Positions 3,263 to 64,000 of a stretch of DNA of 64,000 bases are shown here, in pieces. The notes under the pieces were generated by a model. It was given only the letters and a program-made list of their open reading frames with translations. It was not told the DNA's origin and ran no database searches. The first letter of the stretch is position 1; the number at the start of each line of letters is the position of its first letter. Position numbers and translations under genes: made by a program. Origin of the DNA: an uncultured Candidatus Saccharibacteria bacterium. GTDB lineage: Bacteria > Patescibacteriota > Minisyncoccia > Sungbacterales > HO2-52-23. The stretch lies in the NCBI GenBank assembly GCA_964585475.1, contig CAZPDF010000005.1, positions 3,323 through 67,322 of the forward strand, written 5' to 3'.

Positions 3263-3345
3263 ATACCCCCCATTTGGTGCTAAATTTTTAAGAACAGTAA
3301 AACTAAAATAGCATAATATAGATTATTCGTCAAGCCATTTTTCTA

Positions 3346-4383
3346 CTATATGAACGTGGCTCCTAAAAGATCAGGATGCCCCAGAAGAAATGCCTGTGTC
3401 TCTATACTCTTTTTCCCCTCAAGTTTGAGTTTTTTTACAAGAAGTCCTCCTTTGCCGCACTTTACGAGTATCACGTCTTTTTGCTCGCCCGAGATATAAC
3501 CCGGAGAGCCGGCCGGAATATCATCTCGAACCGTATCTGCCTCCTCGATCTTAATGCGGCAGATTTTTTCCCCAGATGGCCAGATGGTCCACGTTCCTGG
3601 CCACGGATTGAAAGCGCGAACCATCCGCTCGATTTCTTCTGCTGGCCGCGACCAATTAATTCTGCCGTCGTCTTTTTTAAGAATTTTGGAATAAGTCGCT
3701 TGGGAATCGTTTTGTGGTACCGGCGTAATCTCTCTCCTGATCCATTTTGGTAGCGTTTCAATTAAAAGCTCTGCCCCCAATTTCGCCAGCTCATCGTGTA
3801 GGGTTTTGTAATTTGTAATTTGTAATTTGTAATTTTCCAATTGTCGCCATGCGACAATTGGACCGTGATCCATCTGTTCATCCACTTTTATGATCGTTAC
3901 TCCGGTCTCCGTATCGCCTTTAAGAATGGTGTATTGAATCGGCGAAGGCCCGCGCCAACGAGGGAGGAGGGAGGGATGAATGTTCAAGAACCCGAGTTTC
4001 GGAATTTCTAGAATCTCTCTTAGAATAATTTTTCCGTAAGCCGCTACAATACAAAGATCCGGCTGAAGTTCTGAAAATTCTTTCGCAAAAAAAGGATTGG
4101 ATTTCAACGTTTCCGGCTGAAAAACCGGAATTTTACCCCGCACCTTTTCTGAACTGCGCTTCGCGCGAGAATCTACTGGTTCAGAAAAGGTGCGGGGTTT
4201 ATGTTTCTCGGCAAATACCTTCACCGGCGGGGGAGTGAGAATCTGTTTTCGGCCAACCGGCTCATCAGGATTTGTTACCACGGCAACAATGTTACAGCCA
4301 GCTTCAATAAGCGCCTCAAGCGAGGGAAGCGCAAATTCCGGCGTACCCCAGAAAATTATTTTAATTTCTTTTACCTGCGTCAT
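3346..4383 (-). CDS. fmt: methionyl-tRNA formyltransferase
   Basis: IIFWGTPEFA...VVTNPDEPVGRK, NIHPSLLPRWRGPSPIQ and the C-terminal domain are present. It is paired with def. It contains two unusual in-frame inserts (see repeats). Confidence 0.9.
   Translation of the reverse strand: MTQVKEIKIIFWGTPEFALPSLEALIEAGCNIVAVVTNPDEPVGRKQILTPPPVKVFAEKHKPRTFSEPVDSRAKRSSEKVRGKIPVFQPETLKSNPFFAKEFSELQPDLCIVAAYGKIILREILEIPKLGFLNIHPSLLPRWRGPSPIQYTILKGDTETGVTIIKVDEQMDHGPIVAWRQLENYKLQITNYKTLHDELAKLGAELLIETLPKWIRREITPVPQNDSQATYSKILKKDDGRINWSRPAEEIERMVRAFNPWPGTWTIWPSGEKICRIKIEEADTVRDDIPAGSPGYISGEQKDVILVKCGKGGLLVKKLKLEGKKSIETQAFLLGHPDLLGATFI
3804..3838. repeat. heptanucleotide microsatellite (ATTTGTA)x4-5 inside fmt coding region
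   Basis: The sequence ttttgta atttgta atttgta atttgta attt is seen directly. It encodes NYKLQITNYK in the Fmt interdomain linker. Confidence 0.8.
4135..4198. repeat. perfect 20-bp-arm palindromic element inserted in-frame in fmt
   Basis: The arms accccgcaccttttctgaac / gttcagaaaaggtgcggggt surround a 24-nt loop. The element encodes the extra segment SEPVDSRAKRSSEKVRGKIP, absent from typical Fmt. Confidence 0.8.
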
Positions 4384-4550
4384 GTGACACTTTTTATATT
4401 TCTTCCCAACAACGTTCTTACATTCTCAAGTATGTTGGTATGTTTTTATCTCCCATGACACATTTTATATTTCTTTCTGGACTATTCGCTTATTCGTACG
4501 AATAAGCGAATAGTCTCCCACATCGCATGACACTTTTTATATTTTTTTTC
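4381..4550. repeat. def-fmt intergenic array: three ~25-bp direct repeats (catgacacWttttatatttctt) at ~73-bp spacing plus a perfect 32-bp palindrome (4482-4513)
   Basis: Copies lie at about 4381, 4454 and 4526. The first contains the fmt ATG. The palindrome is ctattcgcttattcgta|cgaataagcgaatag. Confidence 0.7.
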
Positions 4551-9373: not shown

Positions 9374-9480
9374 ACCCCGTTAGAGATGCGGAATGGAGTA
9401 ACACCGGTTATATGCATGTGGCTGCAGAGCGACTCTTATCCCTTACTTCAATCTGGAATAAATCTCTAACGGGGTTGACC
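9374..9480. repeat. ~107-bp inverted-repeat element with termini gaccccgttagagat / atctctaacggggttgacc
   Basis: Seen directly. It belongs to a CCCCGTTA-terminated IR family also present at 21274, 25126 and 58607. Confidence 0.7.
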
Positions 9481-9517
9481 GCCTTTTTAATTTTTGCGAT
9501 AATTGAACTAACAATTT

Positions 9518-13669: not shown

Positions 13670-13710
13670 ACCACATAGTTATTTAGAGTTTAGGGTTTAG
13701 AATTTAGAGT
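13670..13710. repeat. tandem TTTAGA-type repeats (tttagagtttagggtttagaatttagagttt)
   Basis: The same motif recurs at 50048-50075, at 50178-50210, and in-frame at about 16650-16695. Confidence 0.7.
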
Positions 13711-16423: not shown

Positions 16424-16852
16424 GTGCCATACATTATGATTATGCTATACGAATACCTCCAAAAAGTCAAATCCTTTATTTCGGCCAATAAATCCGACCT
16501 CTACGTTGCGGCTATTATCTTTTTGGTCGGCCTTTCCAGTTTCGGCTTGGGGCGCCTTTCGGTTTTGTGGCCCACGAAAGAACCAATTAGAATTGAGAAT
16601 CTAGAATCTGGAGTACAGGATCTAGAAAAATCAACATCTGACGGTAACACCGATAACCCATCATTAAATTCTAAATCCCAAATTCTAAATTCTGGTGGCA
16701 AGTACGTTGCGTCCAAAAACGGCACGGCGTATCATTATCCGTGGTGTTCGGGAGCTTTAAGGATTAAGGAAGAAAATAAAATCTGGTTTGAAACCAAAGA
16801 AGCGGCGGAAAAAGCCGGATATAAGCCGGCAGGGAATTGCGAGGGATTATAG
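16424..16852 (+). CDS. membrane-anchored Ada-like metal-binding domain protein
   Basis: N-terminal TM. The C-terminal YHYPWCSG...IWFETKEAAEKAGYKPAGNC resembles the Ada N-terminal Zn-binding domain. The middle carries in-frame ttctaaat/atctagaa repeats. Confidence 0.45.
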   Translation: MPYIMIMLYEYLQKVKSFISANKSDLYVAAIIFLVGLSSFGLGRLSVLWPTKEPIRIENLESGVQDLEKSTSDGNTDNPSLNSKSQILNSGGKYVASKNGTAYHYPWCSGALRIKEENKIWFETKEAAEKAGYKPAGNCEGL

Positions 16853-20325: not shown

Positions 20326-21327
20326 ATGATAAAACCCGTCCTTCAATATCTAACCGATTTTCTTACCTTCTGCGAGGTTGAGAAAGGACTTACTCCGACC
20401 ACGGTCAAAAACTATGCCCGTTTCTTAAATAAATTTTTTATCTGGCTTGAGAAGAATAACTTGAGCAATCTTACTCCTGATAAACTTTCCGAGGATATAA
20501 TTTGGAAATATAGAGTTTGGCTTTCCCGCTTGCCCAACATGGTGCGCCATGCCTCCCGCGGGCTTAGTCCGTCCACCCAGTCGCGCTATCTAATTGCGCT
20601 ACGCGCCCTCCTGGCCTATTTCCACGAAAAAGATATACCATCTCTGCCTACCGAGAAGATCAAGCTGCCGAAAGACCGCGAACGGCAAGTCAAATTCTTG
20701 GATTTAGAACAAGTTGAAAAATTGCTTGTTTCACCCAATACCTCCACCCTTACCGGCATGCGGGACCGGGCGATACTTGAAACCTTGTTTAGTACCGGGG
20801 TTCGCGTATCTGAACTTATCTCCCTTGACCGGAAACATCTGGTTGGCTCCAAGGGCAAAAAAGATTTTGAAATGAGTGTGGTTGGCAAGGGCGGGTATAT
20901 CCGGACGATTTATTTTTCCGAAAGGGCCATCTTTTGGATACAAAAATACCTTGCGGCACGCAAGGATGAGGAGCAGGCTCTATTTATAAGAATTAGGGGC
21001 CCTAAAAATGCCTCCCCCACCAGATTAACGCCTCGGGGTATAGAGCTTATCGTAGAAAAATATGCCAAGTTGGCCGGCCTTTCCATTCTGGCTACGCCGC
21101 ATACACTGCGTCATAGTTTTGCCACGGATCTCTTGAATCAGGGAGTTGATTTGCGAACCGTGCAGGAATTCTTGGGGCACCGCAATATCGCAACTACTCA
21201 AGTGTATACGCATGTGACAAGTAGACGCCTTCGCGAAGTCCATCGCAAATATCACGGCGGGAAAATGCTTCATCCCGTTAGAGAAAAACACCGCAAACCA
21301 TTTTTGGTTTCAAATAATTTGATATAA
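20326..21327 (+). CDS. tyrosine-type site-specific recombinase (XerC/XerD/integrase family)
   Basis: N-terminal SAM-like domain. The catalytic R...HTLRHSFAT...GHRNIATTQVYTHV with Tyr is present. The C-terminal extension and stop are supplied by an IR element. Confidence 0.85.
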   Translation: MIKPVLQYLTDFLTFCEVEKGLTPTTVKNYARFLNKFFIWLEKNNLSNLTPDKLSEDIIWKYRVWLSRLPNMVRHASRGLSPSTQSRYLIALRALLAYFHEKDIPSLPTEKIKLPKDRERQVKFLDLEQVEKLLVSPNTSTLTGMRDRAILETLFSTGVRVSELISLDRKHLVGSKGKKDFEMSVVGKGGYIRTIYFSERAIFWIQKYLAARKDEEQALFIRIRGPKNASPTRLTPRGIELIVEKYAKLAGLSILATPHTLRHSFATDLLNQGVDLRTVQEFLGHRNIATTQVYTHVTSRRLREVHRKYHGGKMLHPVREKHRKPFLVSNNLI

Positions 21328-21375
21328 AACATCCCTTTAATCCTAAATTTGATTTGTCTGTTTTTCTCTAACGGG
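21274..21375. repeat. ~100-bp element with perfect 15-bp terminal IR cccgttagagaaaaa / tttttctctaacggg overlapping recombinase 3' end
   Basis: Seen directly. Arm 1 encodes the last residues and stop of the recombinase. Confidence 0.75.
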
Positions 21376-21392
21376 ATTCATAGCTGATTCCC

Positions 21393-25108: not shown

Positions 25109-25308
25109 GGGGAAAGAGCGGCCCGCCCCGTTAGATATTTGGTAAAACCAAAATCTAACGGGGTAAATGCAGTACCGATGTGCAGTGGGCCGGTTGGACT
25201 TGGAGCAATACGGCAACGAATGGTTGTGATTTCCTTCATGTCTTGAGCCTGATGAACAATAAGATTTCCGCGCATATCAGCGTTAAGCGGCATGGCAGGG
25301 AATAGCAA
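25105..25308 (-). other. upstream leader ORF duplicating the GltX N-terminus (..IRCRIAPSPTGPLHIGTA..), stop overlapping gltX ATG
   Basis: Tandem duplication of the gltX 5' end (25169-25239 against 25054-25108), separated by a ccccgttagat...atctaacgggg hairpin (25126-25163). The TGA stop overlaps the gltX ATG as ATGA. Confidence 0.5.
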
Positions 25309-48243: not shown

Positions 48244-48270
48244 AAAATCCCGCCGGAGAGGCGGGATTTT
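48244..48270. terminator. bidirectional terminator-like hairpin aaaatcccgcc-ggagag-ggcgggatttt
   Basis: Perfect stem flanked by A and T runs, downstream of groEL. Confidence 0.45.
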
Positions 48271-48286
48271 GACATCAGCAAGGTAT

Positions 48287-48342
48287 GTTCTCGACAGGCT
48301 CGAACAATATTCTTCGAGCGAGCGAAGCTAGTCGAGAAGCTT
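48287..48342. repeat. palindromic repeat copy B (ttctcgacaggctcgaaca...cttcgagcgagcgaagc) of TTCGAGC/GCTCGAA family
   Basis: It shares 13-14-mers with the copies at 56214-56284 and 61891-61993. Confidence 0.6.
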
Positions 48343-48391: not shown

Positions 48392-50215
<1,824 letters not shown>

Positions 50216-50512
50216 TTATTCTAAAACGGCGAGTATATCTTCCTCCCTTGCAATTAAGTATTCTTTATCGTCGACTTTTATCTCATTCGGCCCGTATTTG
50301 GTGAAGAGAACAATGTCCCCTACTTTAACGCTCATGGGGATTCTTTTCCCTTCATCGGAAAGTTTGCCGGGGCCTACGGCAATTATTTTGCCCTGCTCCG
50401 GACGCTCTTTATCGGCGGTCTCGGGCAGATAAATTCCGGTCTTGGTTTTACCCTCCTTGGTCTCGTTCAAGGGTTCAACCACCACCCGGTCATTTAATGG
50501 CTTTATATTCAT
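50216..50512 (-). CDS. groES: co-chaperonin GroES
   Basis: [12 protein letters not shown]...GIYLPE...GKIIAVGPG signature. Confidence 0.95.
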
Positions 50513-50587
50513 GAAGCTTCTTAGCTTTTTTAGCTTCTTAGCTTTTTAAGGTGGAGTTCCTAAAAAGCCAATTCCTAACAAGCTATT

Positions 50588-50614
50588 TTAGCACTCTTGG
50601 TGTTCGACTGCTAA
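50588..50614. promoter_or_regulatory. CIRCE operator (HrcA binding site) upstream of groES
   Basis: TTAGCACTC-N9-GACTGCTAA has one mismatch to the consensus TTAGCACTC-N9-GAGTGCTAA. Confidence 0.8.
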
Positions 50615-52196: not shown

Positions 52197-55184
52197 CTAA
52201 GCAACTTTCTTAAGCCACTGCCCTGTGTAGCTAGCCTTATTGGTAATGATATCCGATGGTTTCCCCTCCGCGACAACATAACCTCCTTTCTCCCCCCCTT
52301 CCGGCCCAAGATCAACTATCCAATCCGCATTTTTTAAAACATCTAAATTATGTTCAATAACAAGCACGGTGTTCCCTTTCTCCACGAGAGCGTGAAGGAC
52401 CTGAAGAAGTTTCCGGATGTCGTCAAAATGAAGTCCGGTCGTTGGTTCGTCAAGAATATAGAGCGTGGTTCCCGTGTCGCGCCTCGAAAGTTCGGTTGCG
52501 AGTTTCACTCTCTGCGCTTCGCCCCCCGAAAGAGTTGGTGCCGGCTGCCCCAGCTTTATATAGCCAAGGCCCACATCTTGAAGTGTCTGCAATTTGGATT
52601 TGATTTGCGGCACGGCGTTGAAAAACTGCAGTGTTTCTTCCACCGACATGCCAAGGATGCTGGCAATATTTTTTCCGTTATACTCAATCTCCAAGGCCTC
52701 ACGGTTATAGCGCGTCCCGCGGCACTCTTCACATTCCACGTAAACATCGGGGAGAAAGTACATTTCTATTTTTTTCACCCCCTGACCTTCGCAGGTTTCG
52801 CACCTTCCGCCCTTTACGTTAAAACTGAAGCGTCCCGGCGTATATCCAAGGGCCCTCGCATCAGAGGTTCGCGCGAATAGACTACGGATAAAACCAAACG
52901 CTCCGGTATATGTTGCCGGATTTGAACGCGGCGTTCTTCCAATCGGTGATTGATCCACCACGACAGTTTTATTTATATGCTCTATCCCAACAATCTCTTT
53001 ATGTGCGCCTGGAAATACATGAGCTCGATGGAGTTTCGCGAGGAGTGCTTTAGCCAAGACGTCATTTACCAGTGTAGATTTGCCCGAACCCGAAACCCCG
53101 GCAACGCACACAAACTTGCCCAGCGGAATTTTTACGTCAATATTTTTAAGATTGTGCTCCGTTGCCCCTTTAATGGTAAGATATTTATCGCTAATCAGCC
53201 GCGAATTTTTACCCGAATCTTTGCTCGCCGCTTCGTTTCTATTCGAGATAATTTGAGATGAAATTTGAGATTGATTAGTGACTAACACTCTTTTCCTCCC
53301 GGAAAGGTACTCCCCCGTAAGAGTTTTTGCTCGAAAGAGTTTCTTGGGGTTACCCGTAAATATAACTTCGCCGCCGTGTTTTCCCGCGCCGTGGCCAAGA
53401 TCAATTATCCAATCGGCCGAACGCATGGTCTCCGCGTCATGCTCCACCACAATGACCGTATTTCCCAAATCGCGTAGGTCTTTTAAGGTAGCAATCAGCC
53501 GCGCATGGTCCCGTGGATGAAGACCGACCGATGGTTCGTCCAGTACATAAATAATCCCTGTCAGGCGCGAGCCGATTTGGGTGGCAAGTTGTATCCGTTG
53601 TGCCTCTCCGCCAGCCAGTGTCGTTGAATCCCGGGCGATGGTTAAATACTCAAGTCCCACATCGCGCAAGAATTCGAGGCGCTTCAGAATTTCTTTTACC
53701 AATGGAGTTGCGATTTTAAGATCTCCAGAAGATAATTTCGGTGACTTTCCTTTTAGAAGTTCTTTGAAATAATTGCCGGCTGTTTCTATATTTTTTTCGC
53801 TAAGTGACGCTATATTTTCCTCCCCGATTTTTACTCCAAGTGCTTCTGGTCTTAAGCGACGCCCATTACAAGAAGGACAAGTTTTTATAATCATATATTT
53901 CTCTATCTCGGCCCGGGTAAATTCCGAATCGGTTTCCTTCCATCTGCGTTTAAGGTTGGGTATTACACCTTCAAATACGCCGCTTGAACGCGTCTCCTTA
54001 ATTTCTCCTCCCTCCTCCCCGTTAAGAATGATGTCGATCGCCTGTTGAGAAAGTTTCCCTACGGGCGAATTTAAGGAGAATTTATGGCGCTTGGCAACGT
54101 CCTCCAGAATCCACCAATACCAACTCTGCCGTCCGAGGCGATGCGAGGCAGAAGCCCAAGGGCGGATCGCGCCTTCGGCAAGGGTGAGACGCTTATTTGG
54201 AATTACGAGTTCAGGGTCAACTTCGAGAGTGGAACCTAGGCCGGTGCACATAGGGCATGCTCCGTAAGGGCTGTTGAAAGAGAACGTGCGCGGCTCAATC
54301 TCCGGCAGATTTATGCCGCAGGCAGAACAGGCAAAATGTTCGGAGAAAATATAATCGCTAATCGAACTCGAATTTTCTCCCGAATACTCGCGGATCTTTT
54401 TTGCATCATTTGAGATCATTCGAGACGGAATTCGCGATTGATTAGGGACATTTACCACCATCGCCCCTTTACCAATTTTAAGGGCGGTTTCCAGAGAATC
54501 GCGGATCCGCGCGCGATCAATATCGGTACCAAGCGTAAAACGATCCACCACTACCTCGATTGTATGTTTCTTTTTTTTGTCTAGGGTTGCTGCAAGAGCG
54601 TCGTCGAGGAGTTTCAACTCTCTGTCAATGCGTACACGCAAAAACCCGCCCCGCTTTACCTCCTCAAGAATTTGTTTGTGCTCGCCTTTTTTTCCACGAA
54701 CGAGAGGGGCCAGAATAATTATTTCCTGTTTCTTGGGAAGTTTTGAAACTGCCGATAAAATTTCGTCCACCGTCTGGCGGCCTATAGGCTTATTGCAACT
54801 CGGACAGTGAGGTTTGCCGACACGCGCAAATAGGATCCGCATATAGTCATAAATTTCGGTGATAGTCCCGACGGTGGAGCGCGGGTTTTTGGAAACAGAT
54901 TTCTGATCAATGGAAATTGCCGGCGAAAGTCCTTCAATGGATTCAACATCCGGCTTATCCTTTACGCCCAAAAATTGGCGTGCGTATGAGGAGAGTGATT
55001 CTACATAGCGGCGTTCGGCCTCGGCATAAACAGTATCAAAAGCCAACGAGGATTTTCCAGAGCCGGAAAGGCCGGTTATCACCACGAGTTTATTCTTCGG
55101 GATATCAACGTCAATATTTTTCAGGTTATGCACCCGTGCGCCGCGAATTCTTATGAAATCCGAGAGTTCCTTTGCCATAGCCAT
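52197..55184 (-). CDS. uvrA: excinuclease ABC subunit A
   Basis: Two ABC modules ([14 protein letters not shown] and [13 protein letters not shown]), Zn-finger Cys pairs, and the N-terminal [19 protein letters not shown]. Confidence 0.95.
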
Positions 55185-55229: not shown

Positions 55230-55871
55230 TCAGCGAGACGGGATACGAATTGGTACGGGCTGGGGGCGAGGCATGAATACGTTCCCTAATGAGGCCGCAA
55301 AACTTTCTAGCCATTTCCGCGCTTTTGATTTTGTAGCAGGAGGGAGATCGCAGGACCCAAAGTAAAGCGTAATTACTAACCAAAATAGGAAACTCGCGCC
55401 TAAAACCTTAAAAAAGAGCGGAACATTCGGTGTAGCCGTAGAGATTAGAAAGAACATCTTTAATATGAATGGCGGAATCACTAAGCTACAGAGAATTCTT
55501 ACCGGCGCTAAATCGAATTTAAGGTGATTTGCAAGCGATCGCATTTGTAGATCCTGCACTGTTTTTTCAAGCCGATTTACCCACCGGTATAATAAAATCC
55601 CCGGAACGAGTTCGATAAGTAAACTAGTGGATACGTCTAAATGTTTAGGCTCGTATAGTAAAACCCCGGCAAAATAAACGAGTAAACTAAGCGAGAAGAA
55701 TAGGGCGCTTTGTTTCGCGAACCAGAAACAATCTTGCCCAAATATTTTGTGCCACCAGCAACTGAAGGATTCGAACTTGTTAAGGATCCATTGATCGAAA
55801 GCCATGAGCAAGAGGATCTCCTTGCTGAATTGAGATGTCCACACTATACTCCTAGATATGCTTAATGTCAA
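55230..55871 (-). CDS. hypothetical integral membrane protein
   Basis: 213-aa ORF with about five TM helices. The start is uncertain. Confidence 0.35.
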   Translation of the reverse strand: MTLSISRSIVWTSQFSKEILLLMAFDQWILNKFESFSCWWHKIFGQDCFWFAKQSALFFSLSLLVYFAGVLLYEPKHLDVSTSLLIELVPGILLYRWVNRLEKTVQDLQMRSLANHLKFDLAPVRILCSLVIPPFILKMFFLISTATPNVPLFFKVLGASFLFWLVITLYFGSCDLPPATKSKARKWLESFAASLGNVFMPRPQPVPIRIPSR

Positions 55872-57327
55872 GAAATGGAAGAGGGCGCCGAATACACCCG
55901 GCGTTTATGCATTCCAAAAAGGTTCCGCACAACTTTATATAGGCAAAGCCGTAAATCTTAAAAAGCGGGTTGCTTCATATTTCCGGAAAAATATAAGCGG
56001 CAAAACGCGCGAACTTCTAAAAGAAGCGACAAAACTTGATTGGATCGAAACCGCGTCTGAAATAGAGGCCTTTCTAAAAGAGGCGGAACTCATTAAAAAA
56101 TACCGCCCCAAATATAATATCCTGATGCGGGATGACAAAAATTATTTTTATGTGGGGATTACCCAAGAGCAGTTTCCGAGAATTTTTCTAACCCATCAGC
56201 CCAACCAATATCTTTCGAGTGGAGCGAAGCGAAATCGAGAAAAATTCCATAAGGTAAATTCTCGACTTCGCTCGAACAGTAATTTTACTGGTCCTTTTAC
56301 GAGCGGAAATGCGCTGAAATCAGTCTTGCGGCTTCTGCGCCGTATTTTTCCCTACTGCACTTGCAAAACGTCGCACAGGCGGCCGTGTTTGAATACGGAG
56401 ATTGGGCGATGCCCTGGCTACTGTTGTCTCCAAGGCGAGCTACAACACACCAACATTCTCAAGTATGTTGGTGTGTTGTCAGAGCGAAAAAAAGAATACG
56501 GGACAAATATAAAAAATATAATTGCCGTGCTTTGCGGGAAAAAGAAGCGGATTCGAACGGAATTGAGACGCTCGATGAACGAGGCGGCAAAGAGGGAAGA
56601 CTTTGAAAAAGCGGCAAAAATTAGGGACCAACTCAATGGACTTGAAAATATATTTTCGCATCGGAAATTTTTAGAGGTTGAACCTCCCGTTGGGGGTTCA
56701 ACCTCCCCGAGACTACTATGGCCCAGGGTCGAAAAGTACATCCGGAGTCTCCTAGGAATAAAAAAGCCCATTTCTCGAGTTGAGGGCTATGACATTTCAA
56801 ATATATCGGGGGCCGAGGCGACCGGCTCAATGGTGGTATTTATTGAAGGGAAACCGGTAAAATCCGAGTACCGTAAATTCAAAATTAAGACCGTCCGGGG
56901 CATAAGCGATGTGGGTATGTTACGAGAAGTGGTCGCCCGGCGAATGGCACATGAGGAATGGCAATATCCGGACCTCATGTTAATTGATGGGGGGAAACCG
57001 CAGTTCAATGCGATACTTAGTACGCTCTCTAATCAGTCACGAATAAAAAGATCTCGAATAATCTCGAATGCCCAGCATAAAATTCGAGATATTTCGGGTA
57101 TGAATTCGGGACCGATTAAAGGGATTAAAGTGGCGGCGCTCGCTAAACGCGAGGAGGAATTATATACTGAAGGCGCGGGAAGGCCTATCCGTCTTTCCTC
57201 ACTCCCTGAAAATACTGCCAATTTCTTGAAACGCGTGCGGGACGAATCGCACCGCTTCGCCAAAAAATATCATCATAAGTTACGCGAAATAAGCTTTCGC
57301 AGTAATGCAGAAAAAAGCGAAATCTGA
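55858..57327 (+). CDS. uvrC: excinuclease ABC subunit C (short form lacking C-terminal HhH)
   Basis: GIY-YIG N-terminus (GVYAFQKGSAQLYIGKAVNLKKR), a Cys cluster, and a C-terminal RNase-H-like endonuclease domain. It contains an in-frame palindromic insert. Confidence 0.8.
   Translation: MLNVKKWKRAPNTPGVYAFQKGSAQLYIGKAVNLKKRVASYFRKNISGKTRELLKEATKLDWIETASEIEAFLKEAELIKKYRPKYNILMRDDKNYFYVGITQEQFPRIFLTHQPNQYLSSGAKRNREKFHKVNSRLRSNSNFTGPFTSGNALKSVLRLLRRIFPYCTCKTSHRRPCLNTEIGRCPGYCCLQGELQHTNILKYVGVLSERKKEYGTNIKNIIAVLCGKKKRIRTELRRSMNEAAKREDFEKAAKIRDQLNGLENIFSHRKFLEVEPPVGGSTSPRLLWPRVEKYIRSLLGIKKPISRVEGYDISNISGAEATGSMVVFIEGKPVKSEYRKFKIKTVRGISDVGMLREVVARRMAHEEWQYPDLMLIDGGKPQFNAILSTLSNQSRIKRSRIISNAQHKIRDISGMNSGPIKGIKVAALAKREEELYTEGAGRPIRLSSLPENTANFLKRVRDESHRFAKKYHHKLREISFRSNAEKSEI
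56214..56284. repeat. palindromic repeat copy C inserted in-frame in uvrC (gagtggagcgaagcgaaatcgag...ctcgacttcgctcgaacagtaa)
   Basis: It shares gctcgaacagtaa with copy D and gagcgaagcga with copies A and B. It encodes LSSGAKRNREKFHKVNSRLRSNS. Confidence 0.6.
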
Positions 57328-57457
57328 AAAACGTGCGGCCAAGAAAAAGCGTAGAAAGTACCCCATAAGCGGGCATTCGGTTTTTCTCATTCAAAAACTG
57401 CAACACAAAACGCGTCGGTGATCACCGACGCGTTTTGTAAAGTTTTATGGTTTAATG

Positions 57458-58564
57458 CTAAAGTCCTTCTTCTTTTAATTCTTGGGCGATTTCTTTTACC
57501 TTTCGGGCGCCCTTCCGCGGGATTTCGACCTTCATCTGAATTAAAAGATTGCCCCGTCCGTACCCCGAACTCGTATAAGCGCCCTTGCCTCGCGCCCGTA
57601 GCACATCTCCGGGTTGCGTTCCTTCCGGTATTTTAAGCTTTATTGAACCGTCTAAGGTATCTACTTCTACATTATCCCCCAGGATTGCTTGAGAAAGTTT
57701 TATCGTAAGCAGCATGATTATGTCATCTCCTTGCCTACGAAAAATCTTATGCGGCATAACGCGCAATTTAATATAAAGATCCCCGGGTACGCCGCCGCTA
57801 AATGATGCCTCCCCCTTCCCGGTTATTTTTAGGATCTCGCCATCCTGCACGCCTTTTGGAATAAATACTTCCAGTCTCTCCGCCGTAATCCTTGCGCCCT
57901 GCCCTCGGCAGAAAGTACATAGATTCTCAGGCCTCCTGCCGCTGCCGAGACACTCGGGGCACGCCGAAACCTGCGTAAAGGATCCGAGAAACGTTCTCTG
58001 GGTTTTTTGAATATTTCCCTTGCCCTGGCAGGTCTGGCAATTTTTCAATTTAGTGCCGGGCTCCCCGCCGGATCCTTGGCAATGTTCACAGCGCGCCATG
58101 CGTTCAAATTGAACCTCCTCTTTCCCACCCAAAACCGATTCCTCAAAAGGAATATCAAGGGGCAGGCGCACGTCCTTTCCCCTGCGCTCACGCGTTCTTC
58201 CCCGCGGAGCTGATCCCATTCCTCCACCTAAGAAATCCTCAAAAATATCTGAAAAATCAAAATCAGCAAAACCGCGGCCGTCGCCCGGCACGCCCTCGCC
58301 AAAATCAAAGCGGATTCCGCCGGGCCATTCAAATCCCCCCTGCTGGGGGCCCGCTCCCTCAAAAACGCGGCCGAATTGATCATATTGCGACCGTTTTCTG
58401 TCGTCGGCCAATACCTGATACGCCTCGTTAACCTCTTTGAATTGGGCTTCATCCCCGCCTTTATCGGGGTGGTATTTATGTGCAAGGGAACGATAGGCCT
58501 TCTTTATGTCTTCTTTGGTAGCGTTTCGCGGAACACCAAGAATTTTATAGTAATCTCCTGTCAT
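57458..58564 (-). CDS. dnaJ: molecular chaperone DnaJ
   Basis: J-domain (YYKILGV...HPDK), Gly-rich linker, four CxxCxGxG repeats, and a C-terminal domain. Confidence 0.9.
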
Positions 58565-58606: not shown

Positions 58607-58703
58607 AACCCCGTTACAACCCGACCTAAAATCTGGGGCTTCCATCTGGCTTTTTTAAAACTTTCCATTCCTCGCCGGTCTGAAAGCCGGAGTTTCCGAG
58701 TTG
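58607..58703. repeat. ~97-bp IR element with perfect 13-bp termini accccgttacaac / gttgtaacggggt in dnaJ 5' region
   Basis: Seen directly. The interior has a ccggtctgaaagccgg hairpin. It is related to the CCCCGTTA family. Confidence 0.7.
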
Positions 58704-58724
58704 TAACGGGGTGAATAAATGGAA

Positions 58725-59926: not shown

Positions 59927-59972
59927 AAAAGAATCCTAGTCAGAATCCTAGGATTCTGACTAGGATTCTTTT
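59927..59972. repeat. perfect 46-bp palindrome aaaagaatcctagtcagaatccta|ggattctgactaggattctttt
   Basis: Seen directly, immediately 3' of the dnaK stop. It may act as a bidirectional terminator or attenuator. Confidence 0.8.
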
Positions 59973-59983
59973 GATGTTCCGCT

Positions 59984-61876
59984 CTACTCCTTTTTATCTT
60001 CGTCTTTTTTCTTCTCTTCAAATTCTGCCTCTTTGACGTCTCCCTCTTTTTTCTCTCCTTCGCCGCCCGCACCCGCCTGTTTATATAGTACCTCGCCAAT
60101 CTTTTGCAGTGAAGTTGAAAGATCCTGGCTCGCACGCTTAATCGCCTCGCCATCGCTGTTGTCTTTCACGCTTTTCAAAGCGCTGATTTTTGCCTCGATT
60201 TCGTTTTTTAGTTCAGCGCTGACCTTATCTCCCGCATCTCTCAATGCCTTCTCAGCAGTATAAATAAGCGTATCCGCTATGTTTTTACCCTCAATCAGTT
60301 CCCGCTTCTTGCGATCCTCCTCCGCATGAAGTTCGGCATCCTTCTTCATCTTCTCAATTTCCTCCTTGGAGAGAGAAGTTGAGGCCTCAATTCTAACCGA
60401 CTGCTCTTTTCCGGTGGCCTTGTCCCTGGCCTTTACGGATAAGACACCGTTCGCATCAATATCAAACGCCACCTCAACTTGAGGCATGCCTCTTGGAGCT
60501 GTCGGAATCCCATCTAAAATGAATCTTGCCAGAGTTTTATTGTTTTCAGCCATTTCGCGCTCGCCCTGCAAAACATGAATTTCAACCGAGGTTTGATTGT
60601 CGGCTGCGGTTGAAAAAACTTGGGATTTTGCCGTAGGAACGGTGGTATTTTTCTCAATGATTTTGGTCATAACACCGCCAAGGGTTTCGATTCCGAGCGA
60701 TAAGGGGGTCACATCCAGAAGCAATACGTCTTTTACTTCTCCCTGCAATATACCCGCTTGGATCGCAGCGCCGATCGCCACCACCTCATCCGGGTTGATA
60801 GTACGATTGGGTTCTTTGCCAACAAGCTTTTTTACTGCATCAATTATGGCCGGCATCCGGGTTTGCCCTCCCACCAATATTATCTCGTCAATGTCGGCCA
60901 TGGGAAAACCGGAGTCCTTGATGACTTGCCTGGTAATTTCGACTGATTTATCAATCATATCTCTTACTAATTCCTCCAGTTTTGCCCGGCTGAATTTCAT
61001 CACCAGATGCTTAGGACCGGATTCGTCGGAAGTTATGAAGGGAAGATTGATTTCTGTCTCGGGGGTGGTGGAAAGTTCATGTTTTGCTTTTTCGGCAGAT
61101 TCTTTAAGGCGTTGGAGCGCCAGAGTATCTTTGGATAAATCAATTCCCTGATCCTTCTTAAACTCCTCCACGATCCATTTGATTATCCGCTGATCAAAAT
61201 CGTCTCCTCCCAGATGCGTATCGCCGCCTACTGCTTTTACTTCGATCGTATCTTCGGTAACTTCCAGCACCGAGAGGTCAAAAGTTCCTCCCCCGAAGTC
61301 GTACACTACGATTTGTTCGTTCTTTTTCTTGTTGAATCCGTAAGCCAGAGCCGCCGCAGTCGGCTCATTCAAGATCCGGCGTACTTTAAATCCGGCAATT
61401 TCTCCGGCGGCCTGCGTGGCTTTTCTTTGCGAGTCATCAAAATAAGCCGGCACGGTGATCACCGCCTCGGTTATTTTTTCCCCGAGCTTATCCTCGGCAT
61501 CATGCTTCAATTTTTGGAGCACCATGGCGGAGATTTCTTCAGGGCGATATGCCTTGTCGCCCATTTTTATCTCAACTCCGTTGTTGGCCGTCTCTTTTAA
61601 TTCATACGGAAGCCACTCTTTATCGCGCTTTACTTCCTTATCGCTAAATTTCCGTCCGATAAGGCGTTTAACGGAAAAAAGGGTGTTCTTTGGATTGGTC
61701 ACGGCCTGCCTTTTGGCTAAAAGGCCCGCTAGGCGATCGCCAGATTTTGAGATCGCGACAATTGAGGGAGTCGTACGATTCCCCTCTTTACTTTCTATTA
61801 TTTTCGGTTCGCCATGTTCAATCACGGCCATGGCGGAATTGGTAGTGCCGAGATCGATTCCTAAGATTTTGGGCAT
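59984..61876 (-). CDS. dnaK: molecular chaperone DnaK (Hsp70)
   Basis: [18 protein letters not shown], a substrate-binding domain, and an acidic C-terminal tail. Confidence 0.95.
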
Positions 61877-61890
61877 TTTAGATGTTTATA

Positions 61891-61993
61891 CTTCGAGCCT
61901 GTCGACGGTTCGACAAACTCACCGCAGGGAAGAACATTCACATAATTTCTTTACCCTGAGCAGCGTCGAAGGGTCGACAAGCTCGAACAGTAA
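61891..61993. repeat. palindromic repeat copy D (ttcgagcctgtcgacggttcgac ... gtcgaagggtcgacaagctcgaacag) upstream of dnaK
   Basis: Arms of about 23 bp with 3 or so mismatches and a roughly 50-bp loop. It shares ttcgagcctgtcga with B (reverse complement) and gctcgaacagtaa with C. Confidence 0.65.
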
Positions 61994-62068
61994 CTTTATA
62001 GAGTTGACATTAAATTTTATATTTGATAGGATGTTTACGACCTGAGATTTGGAAAAGGAGGAGCGTCT

Positions 62069-62278
62069 ATGTGGGTTGCTGGAGGAATATTCTTTATACT
62101 ACTCGGGTTTCTTCTCTTCTGGGTGAGTGCCTTAGCGCATATTCCATTCCTCATGAAGGGGGTACTTATCGGATATGGTGCTATCTTCATTAGCGGAGCA
62201 ACTGGCATCATGTCCGAAAGGATATACAAACGCCTTCTTATCAAATCTCAATCCGTAAATCGTTCTTTGGAAAAATAG
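62069..62278 (+). CDS. hypothetical small membrane protein
   Basis: 69 aa with two hydrophobic helices. It is wedged between grpE and dnaK on the opposite strand. Confidence 0.3.
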   Translation: MWVAGGIFFILLGFLLFWVSALAHIPFLMKGVLIGYGAIFISGATGIMSERIYKRLLIKSQSVNRSLEK

Positions 62279-62280
62279 CC

Positions 62281-62640
62281 ATGTGGCCATCTTCTTCCAC
62301 CACTCCGAAACTCGATTGGATGGGGCATAAATTCATGCTGGTGACATCCATGCCGTTCTATCCCCATGGGCATCTTTATCCCGGCACGATTGTCACGACA
62401 ACCGGCAGGTTCTCTTCGGCGCTCAAAGATCCTGAATGTAAAAATATCAAACCATTAGATCCCCGACTCCTATATATCGGCATAACTCGCCCCGTTCGAA
62501 CTGGGGATGAGGTAGGACTCTCGGAAAACGAATGGCTGCGGGTAGTAGATCTTCTAAACTCAAACCAGGCAATTCCGGTCATCCTTGAATTTAACCAGAG
62601 GTCAGCTGAAAAACGGTTAAAAGCCTTGTTTCTATCTTAA
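62281..62640 (+). CDS. hypothetical protein
   Basis: 119-aa ORF immediately following the small membrane ORF. Confidence 0.3.
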   Translation: MWPSSSTTPKLDWMGHKFMLVTSMPFYPHGHLYPGTIVTTTGRFSSALKDPECKNIKPLDPRLLYIGITRPVRTGDEVGLSENEWLRVVDLLNSNQAIPVILEFNQRSAEKRLKALFLS

Positions 62641-62697: not shown

Positions 62698-63237
62698 CTA
62701 TTTCTCTTTAGCTATCCTCACTCTTGCCGGGCGAAGCACTCGCTCGCGAAAGTAATAACCTCTCTGCACTACGTCCCCAATGCTTCCGGCTTCGAACTCC
62801 GATTCTATTTCGCCGATACTTTCGTGCTTTTCGGGATCGAATCTCTCCCCTTTCTCCACTTTCATCACTTCAAGCCCCCGCTTTCTTAAAATATCTTCAA
62901 ATTGCGAACGTATCAAAAGCACCCCCCTCTCTGTTTCCGGCTCGAGTCCATGCCCTACTGCCAGATCAAAACTGTCTAATATAGGTAAAACTTCTTCGAT
63001 AAAACCAGTGGTTACGAACCGCGCCAGATCTTCAAATCTTTTCCCTTCGTCCTTTCTATAATTTATTAAGTCGGCCTTGGCTCTCTGCCAACCCTCAAGA
63101 TAGTCTTTGCGCTCCGCATCGCATTTCTTTAAATCTTCTTTTGTCTTTTTAATCTTTTTCTGCAATTCACTCGCATCTCCTTCCTCATCAGGGACTAACT
63201 CGATATCGCTGGTGTCTTCATTTTTTTCTTCATTCAT
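62698..63237 (-). CDS. grpE: nucleotide exchange factor GrpE
   Basis: Acidic N-terminus, a coiled-coil, and C-terminal GrpE beta domain motifs (VLPILDSFD, VVQRGY). Confidence 0.9.
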   Translation of the reverse strand: MNEEKNEDTSDIELVPDEEGDASELQKKIKKTKEDLKKCDAERKDYLEGWQRAKADLINYRKDEGKRFEDLARFVTTGFIEEVLPILDSFDLAVGHGLEPETERGVLLIRSQFEDILRKRGLEVMKVEKGERFDPEKHESIGEIESEFEAGSIGDVVQRGYYFRERVLRPARVRIAKEK

Positions 63238-63940
63238 ACCGTTTCGACTTTAAACTTTTTATAAATGCCCTATGTTTCGGATAGTTCGTCCGCTTAGGCC
63301 CAATCATGGCCAGAAACCCGTTAAATCCGTGCGGATGAATCCATGAAGAAAAAATTATGGTATACGGATGCGCAAGCTTCAAAGGATTCTCCTCGCCGAT
63401 AAAAATTCTTTCTTCGTCCATAAAGCCGGGGTCCCGAAATAATTTTCCTAGTGCATCAATGTTATCGATAAATTCTCCGAAATCCCTCAAGCTTGCCGGG
63501 TTATGGAATTCCGGTTCGCCAAGTAGTTCCGAAAACCCGGTATTGTAAAAAGTCGCCTCATCCTGCAGTCCTCCTAAGGCAAACGCCGAAGAGATATGCG
63601 CTGCGGCTTTGCAAAGCTCTCGCACGAATTCTTCTTCCTTGAGCTCCCCATCAAATATATGCTGGATCATCCTCTCCTCCCGGGCAGAAAGTTCAAAATC
63701 TTCCAAGAGATTATCAACAAAAAAGCGGTATCCTTTGTCGGTAGGAATACGTCCGGCAGAAGTATGCGGCTGTTCCAAGTAGCCATATTCATCCAATTTA
63801 AACATTTCATTGCGGATGGTTGCCGTACTAAATTCCGGACTAAATTCATGCACCAATTCTCTCGACGCAACCGGCCGTGCTGTCCTGATATATTCTTTAA
63901 CAGTCGCCCCCAAGATAGTTTTTTGTCTGTCTTTGAGCAT
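63230..63940 (-). CDS. hrcA: heat-inducible transcription repressor HrcA (short form)
   Basis: N-terminal winged helix KDRQKTILGATVKEYIRTARPVASREL. Confidence 0.85.
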   Translation of the reverse strand: MLKDRQKTILGATVKEYIRTARPVASRELVHEFSPEFSTATIRNEMFKLDEYGYLEQPHTSAGRIPTDKGYRFFVDNLLEDFELSAREERMIQHIFDGELKEEEFVRELCKAAAHISSAFALGGLQDEATFYNTGFSELLGEPEFHNPASLRDFGEFIDNIDALGKLFRDPGFMDEERIFIGEENPLKLAHPYTIIFSSWIHPHGFNGFLAMIGPKRTNYPKHRAFIKSLKSKRYE

Positions 63941-63962: not shown

Positions 63963-63989
63963 TTAGCACTCCCATGTCAAGAGTGCTAA
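63963..63989. promoter_or_regulatory. CIRCE operator upstream of hrcA-grpE-dnaK
   Basis: Perfect TTAGCACTC-N9-GAGTGCTAA. Confidence 0.85.
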
Positions 63990-64000
63990 TATTGACAGTT

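Follow-up and report, generated by a model that had tools for sequence, protein, structure and literature searches.

The question raised by this locus is whether a set of short palindromic sequences, one of them translated within uvrC, are copies of a single dispersed element, and what kind of element that would be. The window, meaning the whole stretch of DNA that was analysed, covers 64,000 nt (positions 3,323 to 67,322) of contig CAZPDF010000005.1 in GenBank assembly GCA_964585475.1. The initial annotation had proposed a dispersed palindromic repeat family with copies at four loci, designated A to D. Membership held for B, C and D, which belong to a family of small hairpin-forming repeats that was also found in public metagenomes, and failed for A, which is a hairpin of another make. 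The loci themselves stood, but their boundaries were redrawn to 48288-48339 for B, 56209-56283 for C (codons 118-142 of uvrC) and 61886-61993 for D, all on the + strand, and to 50054-50205 for A, to which no strand was assigned.

The sequence identities on which the family had been proposed were checked by position, and all of the shared k-mers were present where they had been reported. GAGCGAAGCGA occurs unchanged at 50116 (A) and 56222 (C) and with a single mismatch at 48320 (B). Both C (56270) and D (61981) carry GCTCGAACAGTAA exactly, at their 3' ends, and TTCGAGCCTGTCGA is exact at 61892 (D) and occurs as its reverse complement at 48291 (B). By our own arithmetic, chance alone is expected to produce a shared exact 13-14-mer within 64 kb, so the evidence that counts is a model test independent of the window. 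The covariance model R1 was built from 19 metagenome copies only, with the window excluded. B, C and D use a left module U (TTCGAGC, an insert of 2 nt or longer, then GTCGAGAAG) and a right module U' (TTCTCGAC, 2-3 nt, GCTCGAA) that is followed by CA(A/G)TAA, and R1 models them in the order U-loop-U'. R1 matched C (47.9 bits, E 2.6e-11) and D (30.4 bits, E 4e-6) on the + strand over its full length (model positions 1-65), scored B at 10-12 bits (E 1.5-3.3) and gave no match to A (E above 10). The weak score of B is due to the order of its modules, which is permuted relative to the U-loop-U' order that R1 models. Outside the window, the same model matched the orthologous uvrC site of contig L001 (65 bits, E 3e-15), an intergenic copy nested in another palindrome in L012 (57 bits, E 8.5e-13) and a different uvrC site in L074 (33 bits, E 1.3e-5). 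The L074 copy is a GC-rich variant in which the terminal helix reads CCTGGGC/GCTCAGG and the side hairpin has another sequence, with the architecture kept. None of the four window loci matched an Rfam family, even at E<=1.

The modules are arranged as U-loop-U' in C and D and as U'-TA-U in B, where the right end abuts the left end. C is a complete element, in which U occupies 56214-56241 and contains the side module GAGCGAAGCGA at 56222-56232, a loop (...ATAAGGTAAA) follows, and U' (TTCTCGAC-TTC-GCTCGAA) at 56259-56276 runs into the end CAGTAA at 56277-56282. D is a longer and more diverged member with outer arms TTATAC-TTCGAGC-CT-GTCGAC and GTCGAC-AA-GCTCGAA-CAGTAA, extra inner stem modules, and the inner helix GTCGAC/GTCGAC in place of the GTCGAG/CTCGAC of the family. 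B was assigned by its sequence, TTCTCGAC-AG-GCTCGAACAA-TA-TTCTTCGAGC-[GAGCGAAGCTA]-GTCGAGAAG, which matches the search pattern given below exactly and holds both U' (TTCTCGAC-AG-GCTCGAACAATA) and U (TTCTTCGAGC-[GAGCGAAGCTA]-GTCGAGAAG) as exact modules with the family ends. The palindromic nature claimed for each copy was borne out at all four loci, which folded better as DNA than shuffled sequence (z-scores of -3.1 for B with its side mini-hairpin included, -2.5 for C, -5.7 for D and -5.3 for A).

Locus A, a composite hairpin some 150 nt long, fills the spacer between groES and groEL. It was rejected as a family member, having no R1 match at E<=10 and neither a U nor a U' module. Its outer arms are TTCTAAA-type heptamer repeats, which were also seen at 13681-13706 and 16587-16695 (match 16665-16690), and its inner hairpin, GTCGTCCTGAGGAGCGAAGCGACGAAGG...TTCAGGACGAC, resembles the GTCATYCYGAGCGAAGCGAAGGAWC repeats of other Parcubacteria loci. 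The only 11-mer that A has in common with the family is GAGCGAAGCGA, which had been taken for the family core. That sequence proved instead to be a variable side-hairpin module in one arm, and it is present in unrelated repeats too, with at least three unrelated contexts in other Parcubacteria loci, including those of the GTCATYCYGAGCGAAGCGAAGGAWC type.

Across the 52 complete copies, the end logo reads tTATTC-TTCGAG...CTCGAA-CAATAa, and conservation stops there. The inverted ends are 12-13 nt long (tTATTCTTCGAGC ... GCTCGAACAATAa), and the terminal helix contains a C/C mismatch that is constant among these copies and gives the element a polarity. The second helix is GTCGAGAAG/CTTCTCGAC (written GTCGAGAAG/TTCTCGAC where membership of the family was defined). 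Elements are 54-127 nt long, the shortest canonical copy having 56 nt (TTATTCTTCGAGCGAGCGCAGCGAGTCGAGAAGTTCTCGACAAGCTCGAACAATAA, in L109). Between the halves of U lies a short linker or a hairpin; the linker CGAAG renders U exactly complementary to a U' whose spacer is TTC, and the side hairpin of the U arm is often a GCGNAGC mini-hairpin and sometimes a 4-8 bp stem of unrelated sequence, with at least nine different stem sequences at this position. The apical loop is variable and at times holds another nested hairpin repeat (L090, L169). A conserved 22-nt module, TTCTCGACAAGCTCGAACAATA, is identical or nearly so across many contigs and many different genes. General enrichment of GCGAAGC as a stable mini-hairpin was considered and rejected, the sequence being only 2.4-fold over a crude expectation and ranking 337th of 8192, and the idea is kept for the side module of this family alone.

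Beyond the canonical form, the family includes permuted U'-TA-U copies, tandem arrays of U' alone and solo arms. Outside the window, the permuted form of B was found in at least 24 copies; an 8-nt junction identical to that of B, in which the ends abut with a single TA, is present in 7 of 23 such copies, and a copy of this form lies in-frame in uvrA of L021. The arrays of U' alone were seen at 2337-2490 of L154, with a period of 27 nt, and in L129 and L200, with a period of 59 nt. In a subgroup (L086, L087, L088, L135 and L165), the U arm is interrupted by a hairpin with a compact U' in its loop, so that the two pairings are interleaved. The related contigs L102 and L176 hold orthologous copies with the same flanks and U' arm and with different interiors, one of them having an extra hairpin, GCGCTTGGCG...CGCCAAGC; the interior thus turns over faster than the ends.

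Public metagenomes were scanned with the exact pattern TTCTCGACN{2,3}GCTYGAASARTA, and at least 120 stretches with it were found, compared with about 10 expected by chance, a rough estimate that rests on an unconfirmed collection size. Among the matches listed, both partner half-arms were present within 120 nt in 59% and one in 22%, compared with 8% and 25% at control positions. Counted together, 81% had partner arms versus 33% of controls, and the motif is far above chance, so that the enrichment check proposed in the initial annotation did not refute the family. The same pattern gave two matches in the whole viral collection, neither with a partner arm; this is consistent with chance, and carriage by phages was rejected. 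At least two copies are held by 41 of the 120 listed loci, and about 56 extra copies were found in 737 kb of carrier contigs. Density in carrier genomes is about one copy per 13-20 kb, and the window has three in 64 kb. A strand bias linked to replication was considered and set aside: copies on the same contig agree in orientation in 29 of 41 pairs, a figure confounded by gene orientation. Over 85 aligned matches, 95.8% of cells are paired and both-sided changes occur in 8 of 17 pairs (23 cells versus 4.6 in shuffles); most positions show plain sequence conservation. Of 80 Parcubacteria uvrC neighbourhoods, only four carry the family, including L012, L021 and L074, and L001 is a fifth locus that was obtained separately. 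The sites are not orthologous, being one uvrC site in the window and L001, another uvrC site in L074, uvrA in L021 and an intergenic site in L012. Distribution among related genomes is patchy, which is typical of mobile DNA.

Copies inside genes were evaluated where they lay far enough from a contig end (124 copies) and were counted as genic where the frame was open for at least 60 codons on each side. About a quarter (33 of 124) lie in-frame and stop-free within long open reading frames (ORFs), one is a possible frame-breaking case, and the remainder are intergenic or at gene ends. Twenty of the 33 genic copies were scanned against Pfam and fell in at least 15 different protein families. Ordinary, conserved genes of diverse kinds serve as hosts: CysRS, MetRS, two cysteine-desulfurase-type aminotransferases, HMG-CoA reductase, FemAB, a reverse transcriptase, TatD, UvrD, RecF/SMC, transketolase, a radical-SAM protein, TGT, a P-type ATPase, Fpg and ThyX. 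Compared with orthologues, the genic copies are insertions of 50-110 nt and not point-mutated motifs, and they fall at indel-prone loops of the host proteins; in HMG-CoA reductase, one loop is empty in some orthologues, holds this family in two and holds other hairpin families in others. The right arm is translated in all three frames, and the left end is nearly always read TAT-TCT-TCG-AG (YSSS). Sense orientation is favoured in genes (28:4 in one count and 34:10 in another), and intergenic copies between co-directional genes show no clear bias (20:14). The bias of orientation and frame yields a hydrophilic, serine-rich peptide (YSSSE...SSRQARTI). We take this pattern to reflect selection in favour of a peptide that is hydrophilic and harmless, and do not take it for a sign of RNA function.

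For copy C, the claim of an in-frame element was confirmed, as uvrC (55858-57327, + strand) is open through it and encodes ...YLSSGAKRNREKFHKVNSRLRSNSN.... UvrC was aligned with its relatives (25 orthologues); the linker that holds copy C is bounded by THQP and GPFT, has 8 residues at its shortest and carries unrelated inserts in some of the 25. The segment is missing from most orthologues, so that this comparison, also proposed in the initial annotation, likewise did not refute the family. One orthologue (P0013 on contig L001, 60% protein identity) has the same element at the same site, at 1090-1167. The two agree in an unusual loop (ATAAGGTAA) and show a compensatory difference in the stem, which reads TTCGAG/CTCGAA in the window and TTCAAG/CTTGAA in L001. 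DNA identity between the two elements is 74-78%, compared with 60% over the uvrC coding sequence and 68% in the 30 codons on each side. The orthologous element is therefore more alike than the uvrC around it and is not decaying freely. AlphaFold2 was run on the alignment and gave a predicted local distance difference test (pLDDT) score below 50 at residues 113-145, which contain the insert, with a mean of 71.9; pLDDT was also below 50 at residues 269-285 and 407-419, which cover two other hairpin inserts. In this structural model, the uvrC insert is predicted to be a disordered loop.

These observations are best explained if B, C and D are a small, hairpin-forming, non-autonomous repeat without coding capacity, about 55-110 bp long, that is mobile now or was recently so in bacteria of the candidate phyla radiation (CPR), with the form of a MITE (miniature inverted-repeat transposable element) and the behaviour of a Rickettsia palindromic element (RPE). 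We consider this probable, though well short of certain. The family is widespread in CPR metagenomes, where it lies inside many different genes. Insertion would be carried out by an enzyme acting in trans, with a TA dinucleotide in AT-rich sequence as the probable target. The ends read T-TA-TTC...GAA-TA-A, which would fit insertion at TA; since TA reads alike on both strands, the flanking TA could equally belong to the inverted repeat. Recognition may act on a folded single strand, as the polar mismatch and a side hairpin conserved in structure only would suggest. Selection would then purge genic insertions unless the frame was kept and a tolerant surface loop was hit, and a surviving genic element would be translated as a disordered insert.

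Several points weigh against a simple mobile repeat. No near-identical pair of empty and filled sites was obtained (the nearest relative of the insert-bearing HMG-CoA reductase is 73% identical), for which reason the insertion boundaries and the duplication of TA are only inferred. No transposase or partner gene was found within a few kb of the copies, with the REP-associated tyrosine transposase (RAYT) not searched for systematically. Solo arms make up about 19% of the listed matches and U' also forms tandem arrays, neither of which would be foreseen from a simple cut-and-paste MITE. The element in uvrC is better conserved than its host gene, whereas a selfish insert in decay should be the less conserved of the two; this points to sequence constraint, homogenisation between copies or a role at the level of the host. 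Together with the solo arms and tandem arrays, this conservation makes a host-level or drive-type role conceivable. The copy number in the window organism is extrapolated from three copies in 64 kb. ORFs near the copies were also clustered, and no cluster was enriched, the largest spanning 7 of 120 listed loci and the top clusters all being housekeeping genes. Where two ends lie 0.3-4 kb apart, they seem to belong to separate copies in host genes, and no parent insertion sequence was found in the few kb around the copies.

The conservation of the uvrC copy hints, with the side hairpin kept in structure only, at an uncharacterised enzyme that recognises folded DNA. A broader proposal is that the 22-nt module or the three-helix hairpin is the substrate of a CPR-wide system recognising folded single-stranded DNA, such as a hairpin-specific recombinase or an uptake or repair factor, that repeatedly places or retains hairpins at the same tolerant loops of essential proteins and in the spacers of operons, in which case the element would be more than a parasite. 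This we regard as unlikely, though worth stating; if it were true, directed hairpin insertion would be a major source of variation in protein loops and spacers across Patescibacteria. Rather unlikely too, and slightly more so, is that TTCTCGACAAGCTCGAACAATA or the hairpin is a recognition sequence serving the host or spread by drive, such as a DNA-uptake-type signal or a site for a nucleoid or recombination protein, and is kept by drive or selection. The near-identity of the module in many contigs and genes, orthologous copies that outconserve the surrounding host gene, solo modules, tandem arrays, and the bias of orientation and frame inside genes would all suit it. The uptake sequences of Neisseria and Pasteurellaceae have similar biases, and CPR bacteria are thought to rely on DNA uptake. 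However, the density of about one per 13-20 kb compares with about one per kb for classic uptake sequences, the genic copies are insertions of 50-110 nt where point-mutated motifs would be expected, and about 80% of the listed matches have a complementary partner arm. The patchiness among related genomes and the presence in the same genomes of several unrelated hairpin families that behave alike count further against a recognition sequence.

Placement in the window could suggest that the hairpins are cis-regulatory RNA structures kept at set places for mRNA stabilisation, processing, termination or translational pausing, given that the untranslated parts of heat-shock operons hold B, D and also the unrelated hairpin A, and that L001 has a different hairpin at the same spot upstream of dnaK. 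Stems kept through compensatory changes and the sense bias of genic copies would agree with this. Against it, the 20 to 14 count between co-directional genes gives no clear orientation bias, of the window copies only C is in sense orientation, B being antisense to groEL and D to dnaK, the genes and positions that take up the element vary greatly, Rfam has no match, and B is not itself a terminator, a separate stem-loop with a T run lying beyond it. A regulatory RNA is accordingly held to be improbable. Formation of the palindromes on the spot by template switching or slippage, with the likeness of B, C and D due to TCGA-rich composition and not to descent, is strongly disfavoured and would be very surprising: it draws on the different hairpins carried by the same protein loops in different orthologues and on arms made of short repeated modules with self-complementary TCGA, and it leaves unexplained the identical 22-mers, polar mismatch, ends and module order across unrelated genes and organisms, as well as the E-values of 2.6e-11 (C) and 4e-6 (D) with R1. 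It is scarcely credible that genic copies go untranslated, being cut out of the mRNA or skipped by the ribosome in the manner of introns or byp elements. Nothing direct favours it, and the sole link is that the byp elements of yeast mitochondria are palindromic; the 33 genic copies are in frame and stop-free, with one possible frame-breaking case, and the right arm is open and used in all three frames, constraints that would not follow from removal or bypass. A non-autonomous mobile repeat thus remains the reading that we prefer.

The window also contains other hairpin families. A second family, CTAATCA..CGAAT..TCTCGAAT / ATTCGnGA..GATTAG, has three copies, all in-frame: two in uvrA (- strand) at 53187-53282 and 54354-54449, 1167 nt apart, and one in uvrC at 57029-57120. 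All encode a similar peptide, xNQSxIxSxxISN...SGxNSxxI. A near-perfect 18-bp hairpin in uvrC (ACAACACACCAACATTCT/AGTATGTTGGTGTGTTGT; 56442-56479, codons 195-207) encodes QHTNILKYVGV and has a relative upstream of fmt at 4409-4444. Several UvrC orthologues have QH[TS]xIL..V[GR]M at this site, where pairs of residues co-vary in the way that a stem under conservation would predict, and others have quite different strong hairpins there. Codons 273-283 of uvrC (56674-56705) form the hairpin GAGGTTGAACCTCCC/GGGGGTTCAACCTC and specify EVEPPVGGSTS. In many orthologues this place is taken by EVRLPxGSRTS, in which the sequence differs and the self-complementary logic is the same. The hairpin load had been understated in the initial annotation, as at least three further in-frame hairpins of other families are present in uvrC and two in uvrA. 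The in-frame hairpin that it had cited in fmt (- strand, ORF at about 3346-4383) is real; it lies at 4135-4198, has perfect 20-nt arms (ACCCCGCACCTTTTCTGAAC / GTTCAGAAAAGGTGCGGGGT), encodes ...KPRTFSEPVDSRAKRSSEKVRGK... and includes GCGAAGCGC in its loop on the - strand. Just upstream of fmt, at 4380-4548, three 26-nt direct repeats (TCCCATGACACATTTTATATTTCTTT) are spaced at 71-72 nt, and their spacers each hold a different palindrome (4409-4444 and 4480-4515). A further family with CCCCGTTAGA / TCTAACGGGG arms was found at 9460-9487, 21272-21377, 25113-25170 and 58608-58712, and its motif is also present in metagenome locus L122.

The genes around the four loci, in the 44-64 kb part of the window, are groEL (48392-50047), groES (50216-50512), uvrA (52197-55184), dnaJ (57458-58564), dnaK (59984-61876), grpE (62698-63237) and hrcA (63230-63940), all on the - strand, with uvrC on the + strand. 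The best named relatives of the window UvrC are Candidatus Sungbacteria proteins and proteins from Parcubacteria metagenome-assembled genomes (52-55% identity), and other metagenome proteins reach 61%. On these protein similarities, the host is placed as a CPR/Patescibacteria bacterium whose nearest named relatives are Candidatus Sungbacteria. UvrC has 489 aa and stops after the RNase H-like endonuclease domain, without a C-terminal helix-hairpin-helix domain; close orthologues are all short too, at 410-490 aa. B is flanked on one side by the groEL stop (48392, - strand) and on the other by a stem-loop that a T run follows on the - strand, at about 48246-48273. D lies upstream of dnaK, 10 nt from its start codon (- strand), and is followed after another 10 nt by a strong promoter-like site on the + strand (62004-62032; TTGACA-17-TAGGAT with TG upstream). 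This site precedes two small + strand ORFs of 69 and 119 aa (62004-62640) between grpE and dnaK, for which Pfam gave no match. The grpE-dnaK gap is only about 100 nt in the syntenic contig L001, and D sits at the dnaK-side edge of the inserted block with the two ORFs. A CIRCE-type inverted repeat, TTAGCACTC-N9-GAGTGCTAA, is present at 63963 (63963-63992) upstream of hrcA, and a degenerate copy at 50588 (50585-50614) upstream of groES, as expected for heat-shock operons under HrcA control. Perfect palindromes of 46 nt just downstream of dnaK (59927-59972) and of 34 nt between the convergent uvrC and dnaJ (57405-57438) may be bidirectional terminators.

The family can be compared with several known classes of repeat. 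MITEs, such as the Correia elements of Neisseria and those of IS630/Tc1 type, are likewise small, non-coding and present in many dispersed copies with terminal inverted repeats that fold into hairpins, and the CPR family is likewise small, codes for nothing itself, has terminal inverted repeats and is dispersed over at least 120 stretches. It differs in that no parent insertion sequence with matching ends was found near the copies. Unlike in IS630-type elements, the structure-only side hairpin and the constant mismatch suggest that a folded single strand may be recognised. For Correia-type elements, the share of copies that are genic and in-frame is expected to be far below the quarter seen here. 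DNA uptake sequences and uptake signal sequences (DUS/USS) are short conserved motifs among related organisms, often in inverted pairs, with frame and orientation bias, at about one per kb. The CPR family has in common with them a shared short motif, inverted pairing and a bias of frame and orientation in genes, but it is far sparser (three in 64 kb), arises in genes by insertion and not by substitution, and has the hairpin partner as an integral part. Repetitive extragenic palindromic sequences (REPs) are described as extragenic, 20-40 bp long and tagged with GTAG or CGTC at one end (PMC3733652). REPs, with the bacterial interspersed mosaic elements (BIMEs) that they form, are also small hairpin repeats, sometimes in inverted pairs, and recognition of a single-stranded hairpin is plausible for them as it is for the CPR elements. 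The CPR elements, however, are longer, at 54-127 nt, end in TTATTC / CAATAA without a tag and are genic in a quarter of cases, which sets them apart from REPs.

Full-text searches on CPR, Patescibacteria and Parcubacteria gave no description of palindromic or MITE-like repeats, those on Rickettsia and bacterial palindromic elements gave no description of CPR repeats either, and a review from 2024 on the MITEs of prokaryotes leaves CPR phyla unmentioned. Elements of this kind are known, and this family and its host group appear to be new. Inserts of this kind inflate and fragment protein alignments, give spurious low-complexity peptides in annotation and may cause misassembly of metagenome-assembled genomes, and R1 provides a ready marker for lineages and gene flow among CPR bacteria.

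The closest comparison is with RPEs, which are short palindromic repeats of about 100-150 bp with several families per genome, found between genes and in-frame in unrelated housekeeping genes, each family encoding a conserved peptide (PMC10969869). Both groups are palindromic, have several families per genome, add an extra peptide to the host protein, have no known transposase and live in hosts with reduced genomes, and here, too, a palindromic repeat stands in-frame in many unrelated genes (33 copies, with at least 15 families among 20). They differ in phylum, in size (about 55-110 bp in the CPR family) and in the right arm, which is read in all three frames in the CPR family. Inverted ends bounded by TA, a stem of two helices that carries a variable side hairpin, the permuted order and hairpins nested in the loop are stated for the CPR family alone. 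No resemblance to RPEs was seen, the two being set apart by the description of RPEs and not by a sequence comparison, and membership is not claimed because the host is of Patescibacteria type and not one of the Rickettsiales. CPR genomes are small and viewed as streamlined. Mobile hairpins that abound in them and time and again extend the surface loops of essential proteins (UvrA, UvrC, Fmt, tRNA synthetases, helicases) would, if this reading is true, be a second independent case after Rickettsia, and would point to in-frame colonisation by palindromic elements as a trait of reduced genomes in general.

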